Counted from the stretch's first letter, positions 1,133-55,897 are shown. The stretch is DNA of 64,000 bases from Candidatus Hydrogenedentota bacterium (GCA_046583315.1 JAYGCN010000343.1:1-64000), one strand, 5' to 3'. The notes: generated from the letters alone by a model not told the origin. Program-made: numbers and translations.

Positions 1133-4105
1133 GTGAGCAACGTGAGAAAAAATATTATCGTTATCGGAAACGGAATGGTTGGTCACCGTTTCTGCGAGAA
1201 ACTCGTCGAATTCGGAGCACTCGAAACATTCAAGGTCACCGTGTTCGGCGATGAACCACGACGCGCCTATGATCGCGTGCATCTCTCATCCTATTTTGAA
1301 GAGGACAAGAGCGACGACGACCTCTACCTCTGCGCAGCCGATTGGTATACCGAAAACGGACTCGATTTACGCATTGGAACCAAAGCCACGCGAATCGATC
1401 GAGACAAGAAACGAGTCTACACGGACGACAACGATGGTCTGGATTACGATTACATCGTTTTGGCGACCGGCTCCTCGGCCTTCATACCACCCGTGCCCGG
1501 AATCGACAAGCAAGGTATCTTCGCCTACCGCACCATCGAAGATCTGGACGCGATCACCGCGTATGCAAAGAATGCCAAACGCGCGGCGGTGATGGGGGGC
1601 GGATTGCTTGGTCTGGAAGCCGCGAAAGCAGTACTCGATCTAGGCCTGGAAACTCATGTGATTGAATTCGCGCCACGCCTGATGCCGCGTCAACTCGACG
1701 AGTCCGGTGCCGGTTTACTGAAATCCAAAATCGAAGCGATGGGCGTCGACGTACATCTCTCGAAACAAACCATGGCCGTGCTCGGTAATGAAAAAATCGA
1801 AGGCCTGCTTTATGCGTGCGGTGAATCGCTCGATATTGACATGTTGGTCGTCAGTGCCGGCATTCGGCCACGCGACGAGATCGCAAAGGTATCCGGCATC
1901 AAAGTCGGTGAACGCGGCGGCATCCTCGTCGACGATGCCCTGCGCACCAGCGACCCCAACATCTTCGCCATCGGTGAAGTCGCCTTACACGACAAAATGA
2001 TCTACGGCCTCATTGGCCCCGGATACCGCATGGCCGAAGTTGTCGCGTCCAACCTGCTTGGCGATTCACTCGAATTCACTGGCTGGGACATGTCCACCAA
2101 ACTGAAATTACTCGGAGTGGATGTCGCCAGTTTTGGCGACCCCTTCGCGACCGAGGGCACGCAGGAAGTTGCCGTTCAGGATGAAGTAGGCGGTGTATAC
2201 AAAAAACTGGTTGTACACACGGAATCGAACAGATTGGTCGGCGGCGTACTCGTCGGAGACGCTTCCGATTATGCAACGCTGCTGCACCTGACGAACACGG
2301 GCGATGCGCTCGAAGGCTCTGCCGCGGATCTGGTCATCGGGAAATCCGACGCGCTGTCCGGCGATGCCTCATCGCTCCCCGATGCCCTCGTCGCCTGCTC
2401 GTGCAACACCATCACCAAAGGAGAAATCTGTTCCGCGATAGACGCCAACGAGCTGACCACGCCTGCACAAGTAAAATCCTGCACCAACGCGGGAACGGGC
2501 TGCGGCGGCTGCATGCCTCTGGTCACCGATATCCTCATGGCGCAACTCAAGGCCTCTGGGAAAAATGTAAAACAGGTCATCTGCGAACACTTCGCCTACA
2601 CGCGCCAGGAATTACTGGGCATCATGAAGGTGAAAGAACTCCGTTCATACGAAGCCATGCTAAACGAGTGCGGCACAGGCGAAGGCTGCGAAATCTGTAA
2701 ACCGCTGGTCGCCTCGTTGCTCGCCAGCACCTGGAACGACGCGATCCTCACCCACAGCACAATTCAAGACACGAACGACAAATTCCTGGCGAACATTCAA
2801 CAAGGCGGGACGTATTCTGTCATTCCGCGTATCGCCGGCGGTGAACCGACAGCCGAAAATCTTATCGTACTCGGGCAGGTCGCAAAAAAATACGACTTGT
2901 ACTGCAAAATCACCGGGGGACAACGAATCGGTTTATACGGCGCACGAGTAGAGCAACTTCCGCAAATCTGGGCAGAGCTCATCGCTGCGGGATTCGAAAG
3001 CGGACACGCCTACGGCAAGGCCCTGCGCACCGTCAAGAGCTGCGTCGGCACAAGTTGGTGTCGCTACGGCGTGCAAGACTCCACCACGATGGCCATCGAC
3101 GTGGAAAATCGATACAAAGGATTGCGCTCGCCGCACAAACTCAAATCGGCCGTCTCAGGATGCACACGCGAATGTGCCGAGGCCCAGAGCAAAGACTTCG
3201 GATTCATCGCGACCGAAAAAGGCTGGAACCTCTATGTATGCGGCAATGGCGGCACGACCCCGCGCCACGCCGACCTGCTCGCAAGCGATTTGGACACGGA
3301 CACCGCGATTCGATACATCGATCGGTTCCTGATGTATTACGTGCGCACCGCCGGCCCACTCGTTCGCACCGCGCGATGGATTGAAAAACTTGAAGGCGGT
3401 ATCGAACACCTCAAGGACGTGGTCATTCACGACTCGCTCGGCATTGCGGAAGAACTCGAAGCCGAAATGGAAGCAATCGTACAAACCTATCGCTGTGAAT
3501 GGAAAGATGTGGTCGAAAATCCATCCAAACGAGATCGATTCCAACACTTTGCCAACAATGAATCCAAGGACGAGACGGTATCCTTCGTGCGGGAACGTGG
3601 ACAGATCAGAACACCCGACTGGTTCAATGAAGCCTTGCCCGAAGAGACCGTTACCGACGGCGACGCCATCGCAATACGCGAAGGTATGGAGGATGCCAAA
3701 ACGTGCTGGGAGGCGGGAAGCGTATCCGACTTCCCTGAAAACGGCGGCATCGCATTGAAATACGGCTCCGTCCAAATCGCGTTGTTCCATTTCGCCAGCC
3801 GTGGCACTTGGTATGCCACGCAGAATCTATGCCCGCACAAACGCGACATGGTATTGGCCCGCGGACTCACGGGTGACGTTGAAGGCATCCCGAAAGTAGC
3901 CTGTCCACACCACAAGAAACAGTTTTCGCTGGAGACCGGCGAATGCCTGTCCGGCGATCCTTATAAGCTGAAAACATTTCCGGTCAGAGTGGAAGGAGAC
4001 AAGGTGTACATCGAGTTGCCCGAGCGAAGCGCGCTCATCGGCGATGCATGCGACAATGAAACCGCCTGCGATGCCCTTGCTGAAGCGGCAAACACAGGAG
4101 TGTGA
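1133..4105 (+). CDS. nirB: Assimilatory NADH nitrite reductase large subunit fused to a C-terminal NirD-like Rieske domain
   Basis: GNGMVG FAD motif, BFD-like Cys clusters (CSCN...CGGC; CEIC), siroheme/4Fe-4S motifs SCVGTSWCRYG and SGCTRECAEA, then Rieske motifs NLCPH...VACPHH at about 3707-4030. Confidence 0.95.
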   Translation: MSNVRKNIIVIGNGMVGHRFCEKLVEFGALETFKVTVFGDEPRRAYDRVHLSSYFEEDKSDDDLYLCAADWYTENGLDLRIGTKATRIDRDKKRVYTDDNDGLDYDYIVLATGSSAFIPPVPGIDKQGIFAYRTIEDLDAITAYAKNAKRAAVMGGGLLGLEAAKAVLDLGLETHVIEFAPRLMPRQLDESGAGLLKSKIEAMGVDVHLSKQTMAVLGNEKIEGLLYACGESLDIDMLVVSAGIRPRDEIAKVSGIKVGERGGILVDDALRTSDPNIFAIGEVALHDKMIYGLIGPGYRMAEVVASNLLGDSLEFTGWDMSTKLKLLGVDVASFGDPFATEGTQEVAVQDEVGGVYKKLVVHTESNRLVGGVLVGDASDYATLLHLTNTGDALEGSAADLVIGKSDALSGDASSLPDALVACSCNTITKGEICSAIDANELTTPAQVKSCTNAGTGCGGCMPLVTDILMAQLKASGKNVKQVICEHFAYTRQELLGIMKVKELRSYEAMLNECGTGEGCEICKPLVASLLASTWNDAILTHSTIQDTNDKFLANIQQGGTYSVIPRIAGGEPTAENLIVLGQVAKKYDLYCKITGGQRIGLYGARVEQLPQIWAELIAAGFESGHAYGKALRTVKSCVGTSWCRYGVQDSTTMAIDVENRYKGLRSPHKLKSAVSGCTRECAEAQSKDFGFIATEKGWNLYVCGNGGTTPRHADLLASDLDTDTAIRYIDRFLMYYVRTAGPLVRTARWIEKLEGGIEHLKDVVIHDSLGIAEELEAEMEAIVQTYRCEWKDVVENPSKRDRFQHFANNESKDETVSFVRERGQIRTPDWFNEALPEETVTDGDAIAIREGMEDAKTCWEAGSVSDFPENGGIALKYGSVQIALFHFASRGTWYATQNLCPHKRDMVLARGLTGDVEGIPKVACPHHKKQFSLETGECLSGDPYKLKTFPVRVEGDKVYIELPERSALIGDACDNETACDALAEAANTGV

Positions 4106-18342: not shown

Positions 18343-20224
18343 CTAATACACGACCGTGACCTCATTCGAGCAGACACTCGTTCCCGCGTCGCACACCTTG
18401 TAGGTATACGAACCCGGACCACTCAGCCGGTCGTTATATTTACCACCATTCGATCGAGTGACGATCAAGACACCGTTGCGGTAAATATAAACGTCTGTCG
18501 AGGTCGCTCCGGACCACTTCAGTTTAGCGGTCGTGCTGTTTCGCTGCCGCGCTATCCTCGGTGATTCCAAATGGACCGTCATCTGTCGCGACAGGATCTG
18601 TGTCGGAGAAACTGGATGTCAGATGAAGTTTTCCGTGGCCGTAGATTGGGTCCCAGCCGACGGCACCGGCATCTTCAGACATTGCGCGCAGAAGGGTTTC
18701 GATATCCCCTGCGGTACGCGACAAATCTTCGCTCATCAACAGTGCCGCAGCACCCGCGGTCGTCGGCGAGCTTAATGACGTGCCGTACGAAGCCTGACTG
18801 CCATAGGTCCAGCTGGTAGTGCCATCCGGCGCAATAATTTCGGGTTTTTGGCGACCGTCGTTCGTGGGGCCCTGGCTTGAGAAAGATTCGGGGGCATCAC
18901 TGCCATCCCAATTGGCCTGGTCAATCGCCGCAACACTGAAAGCACCGTCCGCGTTCGCCGGGTCCATCATACTGTTTTCGACCACGGCATGTTCAAGATT
19001 GTTGTAGAAACTGAATATCGTTAAGTCGAGACCAGCGGTCGGCCCCGAATAGGCATCGATGACAATGCTGTACGGATCAAAGCGAGTGTTGTAATTAAAC
19101 GCAACAACTTCAGAAGGTTCCTGAGTGCCTGTCTGTGAAGCCGTACTGGAGGCAATCGTTCTGCCTCGTCGGTCTACAATACGTAAGTCCAGATCGGTAA
19201 CGGAATTGCCATACTGATTCCAGTTGAGGAAAATATAGGTGACGCTGCTTGTGGTGGTGAGGCTGAGTTGTTCGTCAGCTCCACCGAACTCGAGGAAGTT
19301 GTCACCGTCCAGGTCAATCCAGCTACCGCGCCAGTGGCGTTGTGCGTTATTCCCTGCGGCAACGGCCCAGAATACACCGTCCGTGAATCGTGACTCGTCG
19401 ATGATACTGTTGATGGGGCCGGTGCCGTCATAGTAACTGGCGATCACCCATCCCACCGAGTGGTTGGCAATCGAAATGCCATTGTTCCGACAATAGTCGG
19501 CCGCGTTCTGCAGGTCGACCTCATCGCTGACCTTGAGGCAATAGAGAGATGCGCCGGGGGCCATGTCCATAACATGTTCGGCCACACCGACCCCGTGGGC
19601 GGTACCCGTTTCCAGGCCGCTTCCGCTAAAATCCACACCGGTCGTTCCCGCCGGAAGCTCACCCAAACCAATCGCGCTGGTCATACCGATGAAACCAAGA
19701 TCGATCACCGCCACTTTTACACCCGCACCGGTAATTCCGGAGAGTTGAACGTTTGCAGCGTCGGTAAGCGCAGGACTTTCGGAGACGTTCGGCCCCATGC
19801 TACTTTCTACAGCCGGAGTGGGGACGCGCGCTATTCTAATATCTGGATGACCCGCGAGCGTCCGTAGTGAACCGTAAGGTACAAGGACGCGCATAAAGGA
19901 ACGCGATACCGCATCCACCTGACCACCGCGGAGAAGCACTTCGCCCACATCGATGGATAAGGCACCCAGGGAATCGTTTGCTTCAAGAATAACGGCGAGA
20001 CGTCCGCCACTTCGCGAGGCGAGTCCATGTGAGCGCGCCGCTGATTGTGCGCCTGTAGCACCACGTTGACCAAAAGCTTCCGAGACCGAATTCAGCGGTC
20101 CGTCAAGTTTGGCATGGCCCGGATTCTTGTCCTGTGCGGCGGCACTAAAGGTAAACGAAAGCAAAAGGACAAGTGCTGAAACGGCACTCACTCGTCCAAG
20201 CGGTCTAATCGACGTAGATAACAA
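18343..20224 (-). pseudogene. Secreted S8 subtilase whose C-terminal domain is out of frame (frame break at about 18540)
   Basis: AAGGAG RBS and TTG at 20224; triad motifs VAVIDLG, HGVG and GTSLSSP; oxyanion region AAGN. The frame ends after PVATDDGPFGITED, while LKWSGATSTDVYIYRNG...YTYKVCDAGTSVCSNEVTV continues in another frame. The catalytic domain itself is uninterrupted. Confidence 0.75.
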
Positions 20225-20600
20225 GGTGTTGCTCCTTAACGCAGTGGTAATGAATACATGACATTCTACAGCCGATGACACGTTTGCCCAATATTCAGGA
20301 TTAGCCGAATACACGTATCATCGATAATTATGGGCATCTCTTCCACAATAATAATATACGCAAAGATCGATTCTGTCAAGAGATTACCTGGATTTCCCCT
20401 TCTCGTGCGGTTCGAGGTTCACTTGAAAAGAGGTGTCTTTCCTAAAACCCCAGGACATAGTATGTTTTTGGATGGCTAACCCCGTATCCCCTTTGCGAAG
20501 AGAAGCATTTGACTACAAAAGTCCTGAATCCCCTATTCGTGGACAAATTCGCAAGGTTTTTCAGAGAGTGCATTTCACCTAGACGGCTTCGATACAAAAA

Positions 20601-21522
20601 CTATACGCCTGTGAGAAACCGTTGTTCAGCATTCGCCAGCGGCTGAAAATTCCGCTCGATGAGAGTACACAATTGTGTGCAATCGAGTTGTCCTTGGAGC
20701 TCCACCGATGCCGCACCCATCGCTTCGTTTGTACGATGGCGTAAGAAAGGATCTCCTCCTTTTGCAATGCTTCTCCAACTTCCGCCTCACCCATCGTGCC
20801 GTCATAAGGTGCATATCCTTTTGCGCTCAATGTCGCCAAGAGCAGATTTTCGTCCCCGGTTCGCAGATCGGAAAGCCAATCTTCGATGTCGTCCGCCCAT
20901 TGCAGGCCCGTGACGAGGCAATCGAAGGCCTCCCTGATAATTTATTTGGTTGCCTCGCTGCAGTCGCTGGCAGCAGCGAGCTCAATGACAGCCACAACCC
21001 CGAACGCGGCCCCCGGCCTGACGAGTTTTCAAGTACCTGCGTGTCCGTTAACGTGACTCCGGGAAGGCCTGGAGGCTCAATTTGGCTCGAAGCATATTGA
21101 CGCATCAACGCTTCCACAGTAGATTCAAATTCCGCGTTGAAGGAGGCTGATTCCCGGATAATGGACAATCCTTTCAGCAACATGTTTTTAAAAAAAAGGA
21201 GTTCCTCTCGCGTCGGATCAAACTGACGATCCAGATAGCGATCTTCAATGAAGCTGTGCACCATGAGGCACAGATGTCCAAGCGTAGCTCGGCGCGCCAA
21301 CTCGTTTGATACGCCCTCCAAGCCTTCAGCCTGAAAAAGAGGGTAGAGCGTCGTCAGCGGAGAAAAACGCAGAATCCATTTGGGTTCCAGGCCGGGCCGT
21401 ATGCCGAGATATCCAATGATAGCGGTTGAACATCTCGACACGTTGGGACCAAAACTGGAAAGCACTATTTCAAACTGCGCATCCAGTGCGTGTAATTCTT
21501 CTTCAATATCGATCCAAGGCAT
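20601..21522 (-). pseudogene. Class I isoprenoid-synthase-fold (ComQ/prenyltransferase-like) enzyme, broken by two frameshifts and one stop
   Basis: First acidic motif FIEDRYLD. After a shift at the G5 run (about 21012) the frame reads AAFGVVAVIELA...TK*IIREAFDCLVTGLQWADDIEDWLSDLRTGDENLLL, containing the second Q..DD..D motif (TAA at 20942-20944). A further shift at about 20715 gives ...AEQRFLTGV*. Confidence 0.72.
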
Positions 21523-21528
21523 AGGGTT

Positions 21529-22093
21529 TTACCATTCGACACTTGCGGTTGATTTCATCGTGGCTATCGGTCTGCCCAACGCGAATCAATAATACGTGGC
21601 TTTGTCATCGTCTCCTGTGGGCGCTGCGCTCGTCTTCTCCTTCGTCCCCCGATTCTGCTTGTTGATGATGTTAAAAGAAATAGATTGCAGCGAATTGTAA
21701 GAAATGGCGTTGTCCTTTGGTTCAACCCAGACACCCGCTTCATACGGTGCAAGGATCACGCCAGCAATCCAGTCGATGTCCTTAGCCGCTACGGCACCTA
21801 CGCCTGAAGCGGAGTCTGGAAATGAAATCGTAACGCTCGCGTCGGTCTTCAAGTTCATAATGGCCGTACCCGCCAGATCCTTGCTCTTATCCGTACTGCC
21901 GAATCCGTTGGTATCGAATAACCAATCGGAGTGATCCGAAAAATTGTCCCAGCACGATGTTGTTGTGGGATTATCTTTTGAATTCGCCGAGCGATTTGAC
22001 ACTATCTGGGCAAACACAGTGAGCGCATTATTCTTCTTTGGAATTTCGGTATCCTCTCTTTCGTGCGCCTCCCAAAAGCGACGTTGGTTTCAT
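21529..22093 (-). pseudogene. Unknown ~187-aa protein ending in C-terminal Trp (candidate prenylated precursor)
   Basis: ORF 21586-22017 continues in frame past TGA as ...KATYY*FALGRPIATMKSTASVEW* (TAA at 21529-21531). The frame is open upstream (NQRRFWEAHERE...) to an ATG at 22093 that is offset by one base. Confidence 0.6.
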
Positions 22094-22133
22094 ATAGAAG
22101 CTCTCAAAAAAAAGGGCACAACGCCAACTATTT

Positions 22134-25061
22134 CTATTGAATGCGTTTCATAATCGATTCCAATGCGTCGATAAGGTCCTCGTACGAATCGAAACGTTCA
22201 TAGGGACTTTTCGACATCATACGCAGGATAACATTCATCGTTTCATCGCCAATCTCCTTTCTTCGTTTTCGTATGTCTGGCACCGTAGAGTGAACGTATT
22301 GATAGATCAGCGCTTCCACATTTTCCGCGTGAAAAGGCCTGGTACCCGCCAGGATTTCATATAATGTTACTCTGAGCGCGAATTGATCCGATTTCCACGT
22401 CGCCCGATTCCCCTGAAATATCTCTGGAGCCATGTAGTCTGGCGTGCCGAAGATATCTCCCGTACCCGTGATGGTCACGGCATCACCCAGTTTGGCCAAC
22501 CCGAAATCGCCGATTTTGATAATATTGTTTTGATCCAAAAAGAGGTTCTTGGGCTTTATGTCACGATGGATGATGCCTGCCGCAAGAGCGCAATTCAATC
22601 ATTTTGTCACTTGCAGGATGTACCTCAAGGCATCGCGTTCGGGAATCTTTTCCGAGACCTTGATCTGGATATCCAATGAACCATTGGAAAAGTATTCGAG
22701 AACAAAGTACGGCTCCTCTTTCTCCCAACCCAACTCGATAATGTTGGCGATGTTTTCGTGGTCCAGTTTGGTCATTGCGTCGGCTTCGCGGTGGAATCTT
22801 TTCATCGCCGATTGATTGGCTTGAATATGACGCTTGGCAACTTTGATAGCAACGTTCCGGGTACTATCGGCACCTTTGTACACGTAGGACATGCCGCCCT
22901 CCCCGAGGAATCCTTCAATGACATAGTTTCCAATTTTTTCAGGATAGGCGGGATACAAGTCGACAATGCGTGTATTCGGATCATCGATCTGCTGGCTGAT
23001 GAGGCTATGCAGCATCAGGGAAATCTGTCTGGCCACATGGTTCAAGGATTTCAATTCGTCGGCCGAGTAATTTTTGTAGTTTGACTTATCCCCGAGTGAT
23101 ATCGCTCCAATAACGCGGCCTCTTGCCACCATCGGGAAAATCACATTGGCGTTCAGCACTTGAAAACCCTCAAGCAACGCCCAGCGCGAGTCTCCCAAAT
23201 TGACGCGTTCTATGATTTCATCCTTGCTGAGTTCGTGCTGCGATTGTGTCATGAATTCAATCAGGGAACTGAAGCTCTCTGTCACGTCCTCAAGCGGAAG
23301 CGGCGGTTCCGCACCACCCACCAGCCACGTATCATTCTTGGGGTATCGGATCAGAATCACGATCTGTGAAGATTCACTCATGTTGCCAATTTTCACAGCG
23401 GCCTTCTTGGCAAATTCTTGTGGAAGAGATTCCTGGATTCCAATTTCCTCGATCATTTCAATCAAGGAATCAAAACCGGGCAGTCCTCGCCGATACCGCG
23501 TTGTAAGCGCAGTGCGCATGCGCCCATGTACCGGTATCGCCAGAACAGACACACCGGCGATGAGAATCGTCTTCGTAAAATCGGTGCTGCCGGGGATGAA
23601 TTGTTCGATCAGTGGACTTGCGCTCGCTATGATTAACAAATAGGCCGAGCCAATGCCCATGAAGAGCACGCCGTACAACAACGCTTCGAGCATAAATTCG
23701 CTTACTTGTAGCAGGTTGTGGGGAACAAACGCATATCCGGTGATGAGTGGAAACAACAAGACTGTCAACTCAAAAACGATCCTTACTTTCGGCCATTCCG
23801 CATGCGATTGGAACCAGAACAGCGTGAAGATCGTAACAGGAATGAAGCCCAGCGCCGTGGCGATGCGAATAATTTTCGCGCGTTGTCGGTCGGTCGCGCT
23901 CAGATTTACCTTGGTTAATTTGAAGACCAGATCGATTGGCAGGGTCAATACGGCCAGAACGAGAAAGGACAGTACCCATACACCAAAGACTTTCGTGTTC
24001 AAGGAGAAAGTATCGAACGAATCGCGACCGGTCAACCAGTCTGAAGCGATCAAAAGCACGCCGAAAATAAGTCCCGCCATCAGAATTCGCACCGGACGTT
24101 TGACGACTGTTCGCAACGGAGAAAAGGTGATCAAGAAGCCCATGGTTGCCATGGGTAGAAAACACTGAAAACAGTAGTACAGCCAGCGCTCCGGTGTGAC
24201 CCGTACTTCAAGAGGTACGCTGCGCAGCAACCAGTACACGCCAACATAGAGACAAAAAATGAGGAAGCCCAAAGAACTCCGGGAATCCGGTTTCAGCCAG
24301 AAAACGCCACACCCAAACAACCCGAAGAGCAATCCGACAAAGAAGTGTGCAAACTTGACGTTCCAGTAAAGCACGTGGAAAATGATGTCCACCTGCGGTT
24401 CAGCCAAATCGGTGGACTCCAGGGTGATCCGAACCGTACGTCCAAGCCCTTCGGTCATCACAGCCTTGTATTCTTCGCGAGAGGTGACCGGCTTTCCTTC
24501 AACGGCGGACATCCGATAATCGGGCCCAATGGGCAGATCCGCCAGATCGAAATCCGTTGTCCTTTCGATTTGCATATCCTCGCTGAGCTCAAGCGCTGGA
24601 TACTGAGAATCAATATAGTTGGCAAACAGGCGAACTTCAGGTTCGATGCCTTCGACTGGCGCGATTTCTACCGTACGCAAAACAACGAGTGAAGCTGACT
24701 GCGCAGAGACGGCACTCGAGTATCCCTTAAGCGTGATCACCCGCGTATCCCCGACATGGGTGACGCGGAACCCTTTTTCCGTTCCGAGTTCGTCCGGATC
24801 GGCTATCGGGCCGTTTACGATTTGAAGGGACTTATCCAATGTCATGATCGGGCGTGGATGATTGACCGCCCAGATGATGTGGAATCCGATGGAAATCGTA
24901 AGGACACAAAACGCTGCCAATATTCCCCACTATATCATGTGCCGTTTCCGGTATAGATTCGGCGATTCGGGGGAACGGAGCGGAAGACCTAATTTCGTCT
25001 CCGTCTCTGACCCTGCATCGTCGTTGCCATCCGGGGGACCTTTTTTGAAATCGTCGACCAC
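22134..25061 (-). pseudogene. Membrane receptor Ser/Thr kinase (TM, PDZ-like, multi-TM, GAF, kinase) with two in-frame stops
   Basis: GGAG RBS and GTG at 25061; a single frame of 976 codons with TAG at 24930-24932 and TGA at 22599-22601. Motifs: PDZ-like MSAVEGKPVTSREE, GAF-like IFPMVARGRVIGAISLGDK...YSADE, and kinase [30 protein letters not shown]. Confidence 0.88.
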
Positions 25062-25405
25062 GTAGTAATGTCTCCAGTTATGGTGGGAAAACTGAATGTT
25101 CGCTGTGCTTAAAAATTGTTCCAGAAAAACCACACACGACTGTCGATATATGGCGATTTTGTACTATTCGTGGATCAGGGACTCCCAGTACAATTTGACC
25201 AATTTAAGGTAGGTAATCAAGGTTCGTATCCTTACTCTGGAAGACAACCTGAGAAGTATTGAAAGGACTATCCTTATTGTATGAAAACGAGGTTGATAGC
25301 GTTTTTCGCGCTTTATACGGAATCCCAAAAGGGAAAAATTTGCTGGTAAATGGTACTGGCGGCGATATATCCTTGTTTCCTTTTAGACCAAAGGGGAATC
25401 CCACA

Positions 25406-26368: not shown

Positions 26369-27592
26369 CTATACATGTTGCGCAAGGAAACGCTGCGTCT
26401 CGGCCGGATCTTCTATCCACGGAAAGGTGGATTGCGGATTATTGAACCCCTCCACGAATGCATTCCGTACAGCCTCCGATTGTTGCGCCGCCATGAGAAT
26501 TTGCACGATGTGAGGTGCCGGCGGCACGCCGAGTTGGACGTTAGTGAAACGAACGCCCCATTGCGCCCAATCCCAGAAATCCTCGAAGGTTTGCTGCATC
26601 CAGTCCGAAGAGAATTCATCGTCCGCATGCTCAATAATTCGGCGTAGATATACCGAAGCCGCCATCGCCGCGCCATTGGCCCCGCGACCCGTCACAGGAT
26701 CGTTCAGCACGACCGCGTCGCCCATGCCGAGAACGTGCGCGCCGGACGGCAGTGTGGCAATGGGTGTTTTGACTGTCGGAGGAAATCGTCCCGTGAGCAA
26801 GGCCTTCGCGTCGGTCGGTTCGATGGCTTTGCATCGCTCGGCTTCCCAGGGCAGGAAGGCTTGCAACGTCGACTGTGCTTTTTCAACATGTTCATCCAGA
26901 CTCTGCACGCCGCCCCAGTCGTCCATCGGACCGCCCGGGGCTGCTTCAAACAGCATGATGTCGCATTCGCCGGTGGTCGTCAATGCGCGGAAGCAAAGAT
27001 ACTCACCAATTCCCGGCACCACGCTGAGTCCGCCCGTCGCTTCGTCGTCCCTGGGGGTCATGCCGTTGACAAACAAGAGCGTTAGACCGCGCTGAGGTCT
27101 GTCGAAAGGTGAACGGGATGCGTCGCGCTGAAAAAGTTTGCCGAGGTCTCCTTTTCCCGCAGCGACGATAACGAGATCGCTCGTTTCCGCATAGTGTTCC
27201 GCATCCTCGATCCCTGCTTCATGAATGATCAGTTTACCGCCGTGTTCCTCGAATTTTTTCATCCACACGGGAAACTTTACGCGCTGATCCAGAGATTGTG
27301 CGGGCTTGTCGAGTTTGGCGCACCAGTCGATAAGCGCAGAGCCGTCCGGGCCGACTCCGGTGACGCTGAGCGCATCCATCCAGGGGCATTCGTCGTCCCA
27401 AAAGTTGAGATCCAGGTCGCGCTCTGATTGTAGGCAGGGGTCGAACATGACCTGGCTCGACATAATGGAGCCATCATGAATATCTTCCGCCGTGCGATTG
27501 GATACAATGGTCACCTCGCAACCTTTATCGAGCAAGCCGAGTCCGAGTTGCAAGCCCGATTGGCCGGCCCCGATTATCGTTATTTTTCTCAT
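26369..27592 (-). CDS. Styrene/indole monooxygenase (StyA-like, group E flavoprotein monooxygenase)
   Basis: MRKITIIGAGQSGLQLG, SSQ.MF, AQSLDQRVK, AAGKGD and MGDAVVLNDPVTG.GAN; the true start is inside the 587-aa track ORF. Confidence 0.88.
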   Translation of the reverse strand: MRKITIIGAGQSGLQLGLGLLDKGCEVTIVSNRTAEDIHDGSIMSSQVMFDPCLQSERDLDLNFWDDECPWMDALSVTGVGPDGSALIDWCAKLDKPAQSLDQRVKFPVWMKKFEEHGGKLIIHEAGIEDAEHYAETSDLVIVAAGKGDLGKLFQRDASRSPFDRPQRGLTLLFVNGMTPRDDEATGGLSVVPGIGEYLCFRALTTTGECDIMLFEAAPGGPMDDWGGVQSLDEHVEKAQSTLQAFLPWEAERCKAIEPTDAKALLTGRFPPTVKTPIATLPSGAHVLGMGDAVVLNDPVTGRGANGAAMAASVYLRRIIEHADDEFSSDWMQQTFEDFWDWAQWGVRFTNVQLGVPPAPHIVQILMAAQQSEAVRNAFVEGFNNPQSTFPWIEDPAETQRFLAQHV

Positions 27593-28074
27593 TCGGCATC
27601 CTCTTCTTTTTGATTTCGCAAATCCGCGCGCGCGCCACGGAAGACGAAAACCATTGCCGTAATTACCGTGATGATGGCCGCTACGAACAGAAGATACATC
27701 AGGCTGTTCGAGAGACCGCCTCCAAATTCCAGACCCCTTCCGCCGAATAGTGGACCGATCATCGAAGCGGATATATTGCCCCACGACGTGATGATGAGTC
27801 CCCATCCGATCCATGCTTCGCCACGCGCAGTGAGCTTTAGCCTCGCGCCCGCCGCGCCAACAGCGATAAGCGTGAGTCCATTCAGAATCCCCTCGAGATG
27901 CGCCATGCGCCAACCCCGAACGTCTCCCGGCGGTGTCCAATCGATCGAGCCGGGAATAGGCCACAGCACCAGTTTTTCGATAATGACAAAGGCGTAGGGG
28001 AATCCCGCGGCCATGCCCACCAGAAACACCAACGCGCCGTGCGCGATCATGGTCGATTGCATACGTGGACTCAT
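27589..28074 (-). CDS. Styrene oxide isomerase (StyC)-like membrane heme protein
   Basis: M..HG, PG...GW..AH.....NG, W.N and RGL.FG motifs as recalled from StyC; four TM helices; its stop overlaps the styA-like start (ATGA). Confidence 0.78.
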   Translation of the reverse strand: MSPRMQSTMIAHGALVFLVGMAAGFPYAFVIIEKLVLWPIPGSIDWTPPGDVRGWRMAHLEGILNGLTLIAVGAAGARLKLTARGEAWIGWGLIITSWGNISASMIGPLFGGRGLEFGGGLSNSLMYLLFVAAIITVITAMVFVFRGARADLRNQKEEDAE

Positions 28075-28350
28075 CAGGGCCTGCCTTTCGTTGTACGGTT
28101 GGATTAAGTAAGCGTGAAAAAATGCGCCGCATTCATGTCGAGCCAAGCAGTAGACATTCCTGCCAGTATACACATTCGACGAAGTTGCGCGAATCGCGTT
28201 CGATCGGCAGTCGCCACTCGATTGATAGTTTCCGAAACCAGCTTGATATTTGAATTCTCCTATCCACCGCGATTGCCTGCAATGTGCAGATGCCTATCTC
28301 CCGTGTCGTGCTGACAGGTCCCTATGTCTACACTATCGCGATACGAAAGG

Positions 28351-50477: not shown

Positions 50478-50972
50478 GTGGGCGACACAAACGAAATTAA
50501 AGTAGTGATGATAATGGGCAGCAAATCCGACTGGGACGTGATGAAAGCCGGTTCAGACATTCTGAACGACTTCGACATTCCCCACGAATGCAGAGTGCTC
50601 TCCGCCCACCGCACGCCCGGCGAACTCGTCGAATACCTCAAAGATGTCGAAGCCCGTGGCTGTCAAGTGTTTATCGGCGGCGCAGGCGGTGCCGCACACC
50701 TTGCTGGAGTCATTGCTTCGAAAACGGTACGTCCGGTGCTCGGCGTGCCCATGACCAGCGCGCTCAACGGACTCGACTCATTACTTTCCACCGCACAGAT
50801 GCCCGGCGGCATTCCAGTAGGGACTCTCGCAATCGGGAAAGCCGGTGCACAAAACGCCGCGCTGCTCGCCATTTCCATTCTGGGTACTTCAGACGAAAGC
50901 CAACTCGAAAAAATCCGCGCCTACCGGAAGAAGCGCGCCGACGCGATACTCGCAGAAGACCTGCTGACCTAG
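50478..50972 (+). CDS. purE: N5-carboxyaminoimidazole ribonucleotide mutase
   Basis: MGSKSD, SAHRTP, AG.AAHLAG and QMPGGIPV. Confidence 0.96.
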
Positions 50973-53467: not shown

Positions 53468-53953
53468 CTACCTGTTGAACTTTTCCTTCATGCGTTCCAT
53501 CACGATGTCCGGCACAAACTGTGAAGCATCTCCGCCCAACTGAACGATTTCCTTTACCAGCCGCGAGCTCACAAACATATACTCCTCGCTCGGCATGAAA
53601 CTGATCGTGTCGCAGGAAGGCAGCATTCGACGATTCGTCGCCGCCATCGTCATCTCGTTTTCAAAGTCAGACACCGCGCGCAATCCACGAATCAGCGCAA
53701 TCGCGTCCAATTCACGCACGAGATCGATAATCAATCCCTTAAACGGACGTACCTCGATACAGCCGATATGTTGCGTCAGCTCTTCAATCATGCCCACCCG
53801 TTCTTCATAGGTAAAGAGATTGTGTTTTTCCGTATTGTTCGCCACCGCCACCACAACTCTGTCAAACAACCTCGCGGCGCGTTCCATCAAGTCGATGTGC
53901 CCCTTTGTCGGCGGGTCAAAACTGCCCGGGTATACGCCTATCCGATCAGCCAT
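53468..53953 (-). CDS. coaD: Phosphopantetheine adenylyltransferase
   Basis: YPGSFDP.T.GH, RGLRAVSDFE.E and SS..VKE. Confidence 0.95.
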   Translation of the reverse strand: MADRIGVYPGSFDPPTKGHIDLMERAARLFDRVVVAVANNTEKHNLFTYEERVGMIEELTQHIGCIEVRPFKGLIIDLVRELDAIALIRGLRAVSDFENEMTMAATNRRMLPSCDTISFMPSEEYMFVSSRLVKEIVQLGGDASQFVPDIVMERMKEKFNR

Positions 53954-55136
53954 CGATAAATTCTCCTTTTATCGCCGCTGCATAAGCGGCTTCATAAACT
54001 TCCCGCGTCGTGACACCCGCTTCTCGGGCGACCCGCTCGCAATCATCATATTCCGGTGCGGTACTGCTCACCGAACCTTTGTACGTTCCAATTTTTATTC
54101 TTACAGGGGCCCACGGTGTAGCAACCGATTTCCATTCGCGTTCCAAGGTGATCCGTTCCTCGCGGCGCATACGCAAACCTAGGGTAGACGAACCGTTAAG
54201 CAGCGTATCGGCCGCCACCGAAACGAGCGCTTCATCCACCAGGACCGTGATGAGATGAGCAGGACGGCCCTTCTTGCCCAGAATCGGCGTCAGGAATACG
54301 TCACGCGCGCCGTTCACCAGTAAATCACTCACCAGGGGAGGAAACAGCTCCGGATTCATGTCGTCAATGTTTGCTTCTATCACAACCACCGTTTCATTGG
54401 CCGTTTGGCTATCAGAGGTCTCGCCGATCATCGCGCGAATCACGTTCGGACGATCCGGAATATCCTTCGTGCCGCTTCCTACGCCAACCGATTCAATCGT
54501 CATCGTCGGCATCGGACCAAAAGACTCAGCCAATTGCGCCAATAATGCCGCACCGGTAGGCGTTACGAGTTCACCATCAACCTCGCCGCCATAACTCGGC
54601 ACACCACGCAACAAAAGAGCCGTCGCCGGAGCCGGAACAGGCATAATGCCGTGGGCACACTTGACCGTGCCACTGCCGACGTGCAATGCCGAAGACTGAA
54701 TCACGTCAGGCTTTAACTGATGCAACGCCAGATGCGTCCCGACAATATCAATGATGGAATCCACGGCACCAACTTCATGAAAATGTACCTTCTCAATCGT
54801 GGTCCCATGCACTTCTGCTTCACATTCCGCCACGCGCCGAAAGGTTTCCAGGCTGGCCTTCTTCACTTCATCCGGCAGATCGCCCGATTCGATAATCTCC
54901 ACCACATGGCGCAAATGGCGATGCGGATGGTCATGCTGTTCATCCAGATGCACATCAAATTTCGTGGCCATCGTGCCGTGTTTGTTTACTTTTTCACAGG
55001 ACAGCCGATAACCATCCACTTCCAGCGTATTCAGAGACGCCTCAAGTTTCGCAAAGTCTGCCCCGGCATCAATCAGCGCGCCCACAATCATGTCGCCGGC
55101 CGCGCCGCAGAAACAATCAAAGTAAAGCATCTTCAC
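53946..55136 (-). CDS. larC: Nickel-pincer cofactor nickel insertase
   Basis: DCFCG.AGDM, His patch HDHPHRH, HFHEVGAVDS, ELVTPTGAA, NIDD, KKGRP and PEYDD. Confidence 0.93.
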   Translation of the reverse strand: MKMLYFDCFCGAAGDMIVGALIDAGADFAKLEASLNTLEVDGYRLSCEKVNKHGTMATKFDVHLDEQHDHPHRHLRHVVEIIESGDLPDEVKKASLETFRRVAECEAEVHGTTIEKVHFHEVGAVDSIIDIVGTHLALHQLKPDVIQSSALHVGSGTVKCAHGIMPVPAPATALLLRGVPSYGGEVDGELVTPTGAALLAQLAESFGPMPTMTIESVGVGSGTKDIPDRPNVIRAMIGETSDSQTANETVVVIEANIDDMNPELFPPLVSDLLVNGARDVFLTPILGKKGRPAHLITVLVDEALVSVAADTLLNGSSTLGLRMRREERITLEREWKSVATPWAPVRIKIGTYKGSVSSTAPEYDDCERVAREAGVTTREVYEAAYAAAIKGEFIDG

Positions 55137-55897
55137 GAGGCTTCTCCATTCGCCAGACGATTAATCAGCGACGCCGTAATCGCCGCACCAAATCCGTTGT
55201 CAATATTTACCACCGTCACGCCTTCCGCGCAGGAATTCAACATGCCCAACAACGCCGCAATGCCGCCAAAACTGGCTCCATAACCAACACTCGTCGGAAC
55301 CGCGATTACAGGCTTATCTACCAATCCCGCCACCGCCGTCGGCAACGCACCTTCCATACCCGCGCAAACCACAATCGCGTTCGCACCCGAAAGCGCTTCA
55401 CGCTGGTCCAATAACCGATGCAATCCCGCCACGCCGATGTCCGTGATGCGTTCTACGCGATTACCCAGCATCTCGCACGTCACAGAGGCTTCTTCGGCGA
55501 CAGGCAAATCCGAAGTACCCGCGCACACAATCGCGATATATCCCGTACGAGTCTCAGGCTCAGAAAAGGAAAGCGTCAAGCAGCGCGCCGTATCATGATA
55601 CGTCACATCCGGGTGCGCCGCCAGAACATCTTTGGCCATATCCGCATCACAACGCGTCGCCAGAATATTCGAGCCGTGTTCTTTCATATGCCCGATAATG
55701 CCGATGACCTGCTCAGAGGTCTTACCCCCGGCAAAAATAGTTTCCGGCATGCCCTTACGGATCTGGCGATGATGATCAATCTTCGCAAAACCCAGATCCT
55801 CATAAGGAAGATGTTTCAGTCTTTCAGCCGCATCCTCAGAAGACAACGCACCCGTAGCGACATCTTCCAGAAGGGCTTTTAGCTTGGTTTGGTCCAC
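55133..55897 (-). CDS. larB: Nickel-pincer cofactor carboxylase/hydrolase
   Basis: DHHR..RKG.PE, AGTSDLPVAEE, D.GVAGLHRL, PTSVGYG, LNSC and NIDNGFGAA. Confidence 0.94.
   Translation of the reverse strand: MDQTKLKALLEDVATGALSSEDAAERLKHLPYEDLGFAKIDHHRQIRKGMPETIFAGGKTSEQVIGIIGHMKEHGSNILATRCDADMAKDVLAAHPDVTYHDTARCLTLSFSEPETRTGYIAIVCAGTSDLPVAEEASVTCEMLGNRVERITDIGVAGLHRLLDQREALSGANAIVVCAGMEGALPTAVAGLVDKPVIAVPTSVGYGASFGGIAALLGMLNSCAEGVTVVNIDNGFGAAITASLINRLANGEAS

Follow-up and report, generated by a model that had tools for sequence, protein, structure and literature searches.

A pseudogenised sensor-kinase cassette in a Candidatus Hydrogenedentota genome and its intact relatives, with an enzyme of predicted prenyltransferase-like fold and a putative precursor ending in an aromatic residue

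Within a stretch of 64,000 nucleotides (nt) from a Candidatus Hydrogenedentota bacterium (GCA_046583315.1), hereafter called the window, positions 20601-25061 hold three genes, all co-oriented on the minus strand, namely gene 1, the remnant of a sensor Ser/Thr kinase, gene 2, encoding a putative precursor, and gene 3, the remnant of a gene for a predicted prenyltransferase-like enzyme. The window is contig C354 of a metagenome-assembled genome (4.65 Mb, 355 contigs, 96.7% complete, 5.4% contamination), and its GC content is 48-51% over 20-26 kb against 53-58% in the rest. In the window, this cassette is a pseudogene, i.e., non-functional and under relaxed selection, of which intact forms are found in relatives; chances are judged about even that the intact form works like the ComQXP and PalPXQ prenyl-peptide signalling modules. 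A preliminary description of this DNA had rightly seen three co-oriented genes here and had proposed a ComQXP-like module whose output is a Hanks-type kinase. The predicted fold, the cassette, the aromatic tail and the gene order of PalPXQ speak for that proposal, whereas the terminal Trp in the window copy, the precursor length of 187 residues and the intergenic gaps on which it had leant did not hold. The extracytoplasmic function (ECF) sigma factor and the proteases of the intact cassettes had been missed in this earlier reading. The features of the window that matter here are as follows.

18524..20314, minus strand: secreted S8 subtilase just downstream of gene 3, possibly the protease of the cassette (Pfam Peptidase_S8, E 2.2e-17)
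20604..21522, minus strand: gene 3 pseudogene in three frames, prenyltransferase-like with a predicted trans-isoprenyl-diphosphate-synthase (trans-IDS) fold (tblastn against the intact ortholog P0002, reading frames, AlphaFold2 (AF2) and Foldseek)
21529..21585, minus strand: intergenic stretch once translated as "...MKSTASVEW", outside gene 2 (end of the ortholog P0010, gaps in relatives)
21586..22044, minus strand: gene 2, a 152-codon putative precursor ending ...DDDKATYY and followed by TGA (ortholog P0010, alignment A9, 70% identity)
22134..24929, minus strand: gene 1 remnant, sensor Ser/Thr kinase pseudogene (Pfam, alignment A6, hydropathy, nonsynonymous and synonymous counts)
24930..25061, minus strand: TAG at 24930-24932 and about 43 codons of relic linker (reading frame, alignment A6)

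Intact versions, which the preliminary description had proposed to seek in relatives, came to light by reading gene neighbourhoods: kinase, gene 2 and gene 3 stand together in L011 to L016 and in L048, which with the window make up the eight loci read. Their gene orders are given below.

L011: sigma, kinase, gene 2, gene 3
L012: sigma, kinase, gene 2, gene 3
L013: kinase convergent with gene 2 and gene 3; contig end
L014: sigma, kinase, astacin, gene 2, gene 3
L015: kinase, gene 2, S8 protease, gene 3, then a convergent sigma
L016: sigma, kinase, astacin, gene 2, gene 3
L048: kinase, gene 2, trypsin-like peptidase on the other strand (E 2.4e-5, below the Pfam cut-off), gene 3; contig ends on both sides

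Among 13 further genomes of the same family, 5 contain a homolog of gene 3, and a search of 121 further genomes from the phylum yielded none. Scanning a contig database returned a single gene 3 locus among genomes, at the same place as in G008, and two among metagenomes; L016, a metagenome locus, carries a glyceraldehyde-3-phosphate dehydrogenase 65-78% identical to those of the order. A word-indexed protein search returned only six gene 3 clusters and four gene 2 clusters, and the family may be wider. The kinase lies in the same cluster as genes 2 and 3 in 8/8 loci, and gene 2 sits directly upstream of gene 3 in six of the eight, one protease gene intervening in L015 and L048. A sigma gene is present in all five relatives' loci where the flank is on the contig, upstream and on the same strand in L011, L012, L014 and L016 and convergent in L015; the corresponding flank is cut by contig ends in L013 and L048. 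The kinases of relatives carry a Hanks-type Pkinase domain (E 1e-46 to 1e-48). Same-strand genes are separated by gaps of 9-105 nt, a range that also holds between gene 2 and gene 3 in the four relatives where they are directly adjacent, and such spacing suggests operons. No anti-sigma factor gene was seen among the open reading frames (ORFs) of the cassettes, and upstream of the five sigma genes no shared ECF-type promoter emerged, i.e., no pair of a 5-mer and a 4-mer at 14-18 nt spacing occurred in at least four of the five regions.

A protease is embedded in four of the eight cassettes, namely an astacin in two (L014, 6936-7829; L016, 5067-5954), an S8 protease in one (L015, 5547-6857) and a trypsin-like peptidase in one (L048, 543-1646). 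The presence of three unrelated protease families in the same slot looks like non-orthologous replacement of a needed processing step. Between the S8 subtilase of the window and the S8 protease inside L015, no similarity was found.

Gene 3 of the window aligns by tblastn with the intact 306-residue ortholog P0002 in three frames, at 76% (21522-21007), 72% (21010-20708) and 82% identity (20717-20604). Its lesions comprise a frameshift in a G-run at about 21010, a TAA at 20942-20944 and a 1-nt deletion at about 20713, with the stop codon at 20601-20603. The two acidic motifs already reported for gene 3, EDRYLD and LQWADDIED, are indeed present, and so is the all-helical character ascribed to it, at least in the model of its ortholog: built from a nine-sequence alignment, the AF2 model of P0002 consists entirely of helices, 17 in number, with a predicted local distance difference test (pLDDT) of 90.5 and a predicted template-modelling score (pTM) of 0.90. 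Compared with the Protein Data Bank (PDB) by Foldseek, this model gave 119 matches at E<=1e-3, running full-length to polyprenyl synthases with template-modelling (TM) scores of 0.6-0.71. Among the matches listed, 4jxy was best (E 1.3e-5, TM score 0.70), together with 5jfq, a geranylgeranyl diphosphate synthase (TM score 0.71), and the octaprenyl synthase of E. coli, while rank 12 was Ord1, an all-helical indole prenyltransferase (9v4g, TM score 0.67). The preliminary description had called for a fold search with gene 3, and on this model the intact ortholog is predicted with high confidence to adopt the class I trans-IDS fold.

Eleven gene 3 sequences, 26-46% identical, share 20 invariant columns, to which belong D94, D98, Q207, D210, D211 and D214 (P0002 numbering), conserved in 11/11. 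In the AF2 model, D94 and D98 end the helix 73-97, and Q207, D210, D211 and D214 lie at the end of the helix 189-213 and in the following turn. A conserved Gln immediately upstream of the second motif is described for ComQ/PalQ-type enzymes in the available part of PMC13290415 and is matched by Q207 in all 11 sequences; it is not discriminating because canonical synthases also carry FQxxDD. Comparison was further made with 14 polyprenyl synthases from the genomes searched here, in which eight Lys or Arg positions are invariant against one in the 11 gene 3 sequences (R170 in P0002, R174 in L012), this sole invariant Arg aligning with the Lys of the KT motif. In canonical synthases, the basic residues binding diphosphate are those of GKxxR, RRG, KT and GK...K. 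Invariant basic residues being so few, gene 3 probably does not bind isopentenyl diphosphate as a chain-elongating enzyme does.

Some further observations concern the enzyme family. A DD pair in the first motif (DDRxxD) occurs in the Trp-type L014 and L016 and in P0006, and the Tyr-type enzymes have ED, MD or YD, a distribution confounded by phylogeny (alignment A7). Likewise, 42 enzyme columns differ between loci with Trp and with Tyr tails, a comparison that is uninformative because the two Trp-type loci are sister sequences. Searched in the ESM Atlas, gene 3 gave leads only, namely unnamed clusters of about 300 residues from Chloroflexota and Bacillota (score 0.96) and a cluster of which 47% of the members belong to PF00348 (score 0.93). 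An identity as squalene or phytoene synthase, considered on the basis of motifs, was set aside: PF00494 was not found in the family f1 genomes and no squalene or phytoene synthase stood among the listed fold matches.

As regards gene 2, its limits follow from P0010, the closest intact ortholog in a profile search, which is 154 residues long and 70% identical to the window frame. The start of P0010 (MAKKNNALTVF) aligns with window position 22044 and its end (...SKATYY) with ...DKATYY before the TGA; as such, gene 2 spans 22044-21586, contains no frameshift and ends in Tyr. The initial Met of P0010 falls on an ATT in the window (22044-22042), preceded by AGAGGA about 7 nt upstream, this ATT being a weak start codon or the remains of a lost one. 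P0010 and P0002 are each reported from a 24,678-base contig, and their genes are probably neighbours. The protein of about 187 residues ending MKSTASVEW that had been described resulted from joining an out-of-frame ATG at 22093 and reading through the TGA at 21586-21588; since gene 2 ends KATYY like its closest intact ortholog, the MKSTASVEW end is a read-through artefact. With it fall the gaps of 40 and 6 nt derived from the misread precursor, the actual spacings being 89 and 63 nt.

The nine gene 2 proteins are 152-396 residues long and, outside the closest pair, only 13-35% identical, but share an N-terminal ERLxN motif, an HxxWLF motif, several conserved His residues and the tail. The tails read HTGY (twice), HGGY (twice), HDFY, HTSW, HDSW and KATYY (twice); three of the nine are reported as ending in GY, and His stands at -4 in seven. 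The terminal residue is aromatic in 9/9, i.e., Tyr in seven and Trp in two, whereas Tyr and Trp together make up about 5% of the residues (computed for eight of the nine), and this last residue is the sole strongly conserved feature of an otherwise fast-evolving tail. The precursor had been described as Trp-terminated, with neighbouring precursors expected to end in or near Trp: the aromatic end is general, but Trp itself is restricted to the two cases, the window copy and the remaining members ending in Tyr. In P0009, which represents the gene 2 cluster of the window in the database, the end is KATCY and not KATYY (window 21589-21594): the second-to-last residue is polymorphic and the last Tyr is kept. 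Clear twin-arginine translocation (Tat) signals are found in three of the nine proteins (L011, L013, L048), that of L016 being doubtful, and NCBIfam gives a weak TAT-region match for gene 2 of L013 (E 0.011); the remaining five start directly at the conserved core with no export signal. NCBIfam returned no NHLP match in the gene 2 proteins, and the ESM Atlas no usable match with gene 2.

Gene 1 is made of a 773-residue ORF (22599-24920) and a 154-residue ORF (22134-22598), lying in one frame and separated by a single TGA (22599-22601). Pfam recognises a GAF domain and a Pkinase domain split between the two, with profile positions 1-108 on the former and 117-253 on the latter. From hydropathy, one N-terminal helix is followed by an extracytoplasmic stretch of about 170 residues, about eight more helices, then GAF and kinase domains. 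The architecture first proposed, i.e., transmembrane, PDZ-like, multi-transmembrane, GAF and Ser/Thr kinase, is upheld by Pfam and hydropathy apart from its PDZ-like part; its length of 976 codons is not, as it would need read-through of both the TGA and the TAG. The term PDZ-like is based on two VNG motifs conserved in all the kinases (A6) and on a Pfam PDZ_6 match in the L011 kinase (E 3.3e-8). The TGA occupies the position of a Gly conserved in 6/6 kinases of relatives, in xGLxxA just before HRDIKP (A6), and the TAG (24930-24932) lies directly 5' of the Trp that opens the first transmembrane helix (TM1). Relatives' kinases have about 88 additional N-terminal residues with a CxxC...CxxC zinc ribbon, whereas the window copy starts at TM1 (A6); of this zinc-ribbon N-terminus and of the ECF sigma gene nothing is left in the window, where the neighbouring gene beyond gene 1 lies on the plus strand and starts at 25259.

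For the intact cassettes, the following succession of events can be proposed by analogy with known systems. In the cytoplasm, the gene 3 enzyme would bind a prenyl diphosphate via Mg2+ at the invariant DxxxD and QxxDDxxD and prenylate the gene 2 protein on its C-terminal aromatic residue. The modified protein would then be exported, by Tat in the members with twin-arginine signals, a route that fits a modification made before export, and the cassette protease would trim it, freeing a lipidated C-terminal peptide. PDZ domains bind free C-termini. The kinase may sense the lipidated C-terminal fragment with its PDZ-like and polytopic membrane domains and, in turn, act on the ECF sigma factor encoded alongside it; that Ser/Thr kinases phosphorylate ECF sigma factors directly is known from the available parts of two reports (PMC7826278; PMC13147305). 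As such, prenyl transfer, acceptor residue, export, processing, sensing and sigma phosphorylation are each putative. Taken to its full extent, this scheme would make the intact cassettes the first trans-IDS-fold protein prenyltransferases with a natural C-terminal Tyr acceptor (Trp in the sister clade), acting on a substrate of 150-400 residues exported in part by Tat, with a lipidated peptide released by a protease, a PDZ-bearing Hanks kinase and an ECF sigma switch, a combined claim that is tentative and, taken as a whole, rather unlikely.

Several points weigh against prenyl-peptide signalling. Regarding the enzyme, (i) the first motif is a canonical DDxxxD in only 3/11 sequences and xDxxxD otherwise, (ii) no Pfam or NCBIfam family matches gene 3 (P0002 at E<=10, the window pieces, L015 and L016), the polyprenyl synthetase profile PF00348 included, (iii) sequence searches of the PDB with gene 3 gave nothing relevant, and (iv) hhalign of gene 3 against the 14 local polyprenyl synthases (PF00348) is not significant (probability 0.4-0.6%, E about 0.1), this low-confidence alignment nonetheless placing the motifs in order, i.e., H...(E/D)D with hHDD, GR with KT and LQWxDDxxD with FQxxDDxxD. 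In addition, the relation to ComQ (IPR033965) and PalQ was judged from their published descriptions. Regarding the acceptor, all characterised trans-IDS-like peptide prenyltransferases target Trp, and PalQ rejected other nucleophilic residues, according to the available portion of a 2026 review (PMC13290415). Regarding the precursor, gene 2 (152-396 residues) is far longer than PalX or StheX, its AF2 model is uninformative (shortest member; alignment A8 of six sequences; pLDDT 41.9, pTM 0.28), and export is unexplained for most members, in which signals are absent. ComX, too, is short, far shorter than gene 2. Regarding the sensor, Pfam supports a PDZ domain in one of the seven kinases scanned (L011 only), the window copy having no PDZ match.

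The same features of kinase and tail can be read with the free C-terminus of the gene 2 protein (His-x-x-Tyr/Trp) itself binding the PDZ-like domains of the kinase, gene 3 acting on a small isoprenoid or having another role. DegS in the sigma-E pathway offers a parallel, being activated by C-terminal YxF peptides from outer-membrane proteins. Consistent with such an arrangement are the affinity of PDZ domains for C-termini, the PDZ_6 match of L011 and the VNG motifs of all kinases, the invariant terminal aromatic residue with its frequent His at -4, the three clear Tat signals, which would bring the gene 2 protein next to the PDZ region, and the output through an ECF sigma factor. However, this leaves no role for an enzyme that adjoins gene 2, or lies one protease gene away, in 8/8 loci and keeps six invariant acidic or Gln residues of its active site, and the five gene 2 proteins devoid of an export signal (L016 doubtful) would not meet a periplasmic PDZ domain. 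Unlikely as it is on its own, direct binding is moreover compatible with a prenylated tail being the PDZ ligand.

Somewhat more unlikely still is that gene 3 is an enzyme of small-molecule isoprenoid metabolism (elongation, cyclisation or metabolite prenylation) and gene 2 an unrelated exported, possibly metal-binding protein, the two sharing regulation only. Its fold matches are overwhelmingly chain-elongating synthases, its second motif is a complete DDxxD as in canonical synthases, free indole is the substrate of Ord1, which has the same fold (PMC12510300, available part), and the conserved His residues of gene 2 would suit metal binding. Yet seven of the eight invariant basic residues of the local synthases have no invariant counterpart in gene 3, gene 3 stays with gene 2 across sequences of as little as 26-46% identity, the last residue is the only strongly conserved feature of the gene 2 tail, and the genomes already hold 1-3 ordinary polyprenyl synthases each. 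A ComQXP/PalPXQ-like function stays the preferred reading of the intact cassettes.

Turning to the window copy, the stretch is present in marine and hydrothermal-vent metagenome runs from 12 studies, and lesions were compared on assembled metagenome contigs. Contigs of run X1 have lesions identical to those of the window. In run X2, one contig, about 99% identical, covers the stretch from end to end; the kinase TGA, the TAG and the gene 2 ATT persist in it, CAA replaces the TAA, the base lacking at 20713 is there, and its G-run is one base shorter, with 4 G against 5 in the window where 3 or 6 are needed, so that by our count it is still out of frame. Run X9 likewise retains TGA, TAG and ATT, and run X8 retains the kinase TGA. 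Within the kinase, 9 nt are deleted at 24158 in X8 and 7 nt at 23323 in run X3, each of these indels being seen in one low-depth contig only. Homopolymers also vary between ocean populations, namely the G-run 21006-21012 in gene 3 and the T-run 22106-22113 between kinase and gene 2, the latter with one base fewer in X2 and X9. Between window and X2, nonsynonymous and synonymous substitutions number 21 and 2 in the kinase, 4 and 0 in gene 2, and 6 and 3 in gene 3, i.e., 31 and 5 in total, 77% nonsynonymous being expected of random changes in the kinase. Because independent contigs share lesions and substitutions run 31:5, the cassette is a pseudogene; the decay noted in the preliminary description is borne out by the kinase TGA and TAG and by the gene 3 frameshifts and TAA. 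It is concluded that the kinase died first and that the enzyme gene is still breaking up. No second copy of gene 3 was found in the 96.7%-complete genome.

Recoding of TGA as Gly was considered and rejected, the other TGA ending gene 2 exactly at the end of its ortholog. That the cassette is functional, its stops and frameshifts reflecting mistakes of sequencing or assembly or a recoding that is tolerated, is very improbable: the genome is a 355-contig metagenome assembly with 5.4% contamination, one frameshift lies in a G-run and the kinase TGA stands at a Gly position, as genetic code 25 would read it, but the same lesions recur in separately assembled contigs from runs of other studies, lesions differ between populations as decay would produce, nonsynonymous changes make up 86% of the substitutions, the neighbouring genes are normal when read with code 11, and the 5' end of the kinase as well as the sigma gene is entirely absent. 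A synteny comparison with G001, a genome of the same genus, gave no DNA match, and the runs listed for the stretch include no RNA dataset from which to read expression.

The other large ORFs of the window are uninterrupted, with ordinary Pfam matches. Among them, a 587-residue ORF at 26369-28132 on the minus strand has a styrene-monooxygenase-type substrate domain (Smoa_sbd, E 9.5e-36); its first 170 or so codons are probably a spurious upstream extension, as the dinucleotide-binding motif starts only near residue 180. At 1133-4105 on the plus strand, a 990-residue fusion combines a pyridine-nucleotide oxidoreductase, a BFD-like 2Fe-2S domain, a nitrite/sulfite reductase 4Fe-4S domain and a C-terminal Rieske-like domain, and resembles an assimilatory nitrite reductase whose large and small subunits have been joined. 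Adjacent genes at 53946-55897 on the minus strand encode a nickel-insertion protein (PF01969, E 3.6e-146) and a protein resembling 5-aminoimidazole ribonucleotide (AIR) carboxylase, a pairing like that of the Lar nickel-pincer cofactor pathway; another AIRC gene stands apart at 50478-50972.

Prenylated-peptide signalling of the ComX/PalX type is described, in the available parts of the literature consulted, in Firmicutes and, since 2026, for one enzyme of the Chloroflexi, with Trp always as acceptor and, where a sensor is described, a histidine kinase. If the proposed scheme is true, the cassette extends prenyl-peptide chemistry to a diderm, uncultured marine lineage and links this chemistry with Hanks-kinase and ECF-sigma regulation; marine bacteria would then possess lipid-peptide signalling assembled from components that had not been seen together before. 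The Tyr-directed enzyme of trans-IDS fold that is suggested would serve site-selective C-terminal lipidation of proteins. The window copy, for its part, shows the loss of a module in one lineage, with stages of decay differing between ocean populations. Particular to the present case are a putative precursor that is long, sometimes Tat-targeted and mostly Tyr-terminated, a PDZ-like sensor, an ECF sigma factor, proteases that interchange between cassettes, and a copy caught in mid-decay.

Among described systems, the closest is PalP-PalX-PalQ of Paenibacillus alvei, in which the gene for the sensor kinase is followed by that for a precursor whose C-terminal Trp is conserved and then by that for an all-helical prenyltransferase belonging to the isoprene-synthase superfamily (PMC10853753, available part). 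The order kinase, precursor and prenyltransferase, here predicted to be all-helical, is the same in the present cassettes, as are the conserved C-terminal aromatic residue, which is the acceptor in PalX and a putative one here, and the long folded or leader part before a short tail. The motif residues given for PalQ in the accessible text are D89/D93, Q197 and D200/D204 (PMC10853753), and the spacing DxxxD and QxxDxxxD agrees with D94/D98 and Q207/D210/D214 here, PalQ being compared by its published positions only. PalQ is further described as needing its acceptor at the very C-terminus, a preceding Gly helping (PMC13290415, available portion). Set against what is described of PalPXQ, the kinase here is Hanks-type with PDZ-like and GAF domains, accompanied by an ECF sigma factor, and not a histidine kinase; gene 2, at 152-396 residues, has no NHLP match, ends in Tyr in 7/9 and in some cases bears a Tat signal, unlike PalX; and proteases are embedded in the cassettes.

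In ComQXPA of Bacillus, a trans-IDS-fold enzyme likewise modifies an aromatic residue near the C-terminus of its neighbour's product, as the accessible parts of PMC10853753 and of bioRxiv 10.64898/2026.08.29.745113 describe, whereas here the fold is predicted and the modification proposed; a polytopic membrane kinase as presumed sensor and a protease maturing the signal are also described there, and both are proposed here. Unlike ComQ, for which the same kind of description gives a DDxxD first motif and a degenerate "pseudo" second one (NDxxx), gene 3 is the reverse, with a degenerate first and a complete DDxxD second motif, and the Trp of ComX is internal where the aromatic residue of gene 2 is terminal. 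The output differs too, with the histidine kinase ComP and the response regulator ComA in Bacillus, and a Hanks-type Pkinase and an ECF sigma factor here.

StheQ/StheX of Sphaerobacter thermophilus (10.64898/2026.08.29.745113) and Ord1 (PMC12510300), in the sections available of both reports, have in common with gene 3 an all-helical trans-isoprenyl-diphosphate-synthase fold used for aromatic prenylation, predicted in the present case, and, one turn ahead of the second motif, a Gln or Asn that is implicated in acceptor positioning; the motif residues given for Ord1 are Q216, D219 and D220 (PMC12510300), at the spacing of Q207, D210 and D211 here. In contrast to gene 2, StheX has 69 residues and its Trp is the penultimate one; the substrate of Ord1 is free indole, and for neither StheQ nor Ord1 do these sections describe a linkage to a kinase or sigma factor. 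The literature searched, supplements lying outside the search, held nothing linking ComQ or PalQ to Hanks kinases or to Nitrospira-type bacteria. Pairs of ECF sigma factor and Ser/Thr kinase (PMC7826278; PknS/EcfK, PMC13147305) present, in the available text, the same arrangement of an ECF sigma gene directly beside that of a transmembrane Hanks kinase, but with no prenyltransferase-fold enzyme or aromatic-terminated partner described there. On the best reading of these comparisons, the cassette lacks a general Trp acceptor, a histidine-kinase output and a PF00348 match, but in its intact form likely works like ComQXP/PalPXQ.

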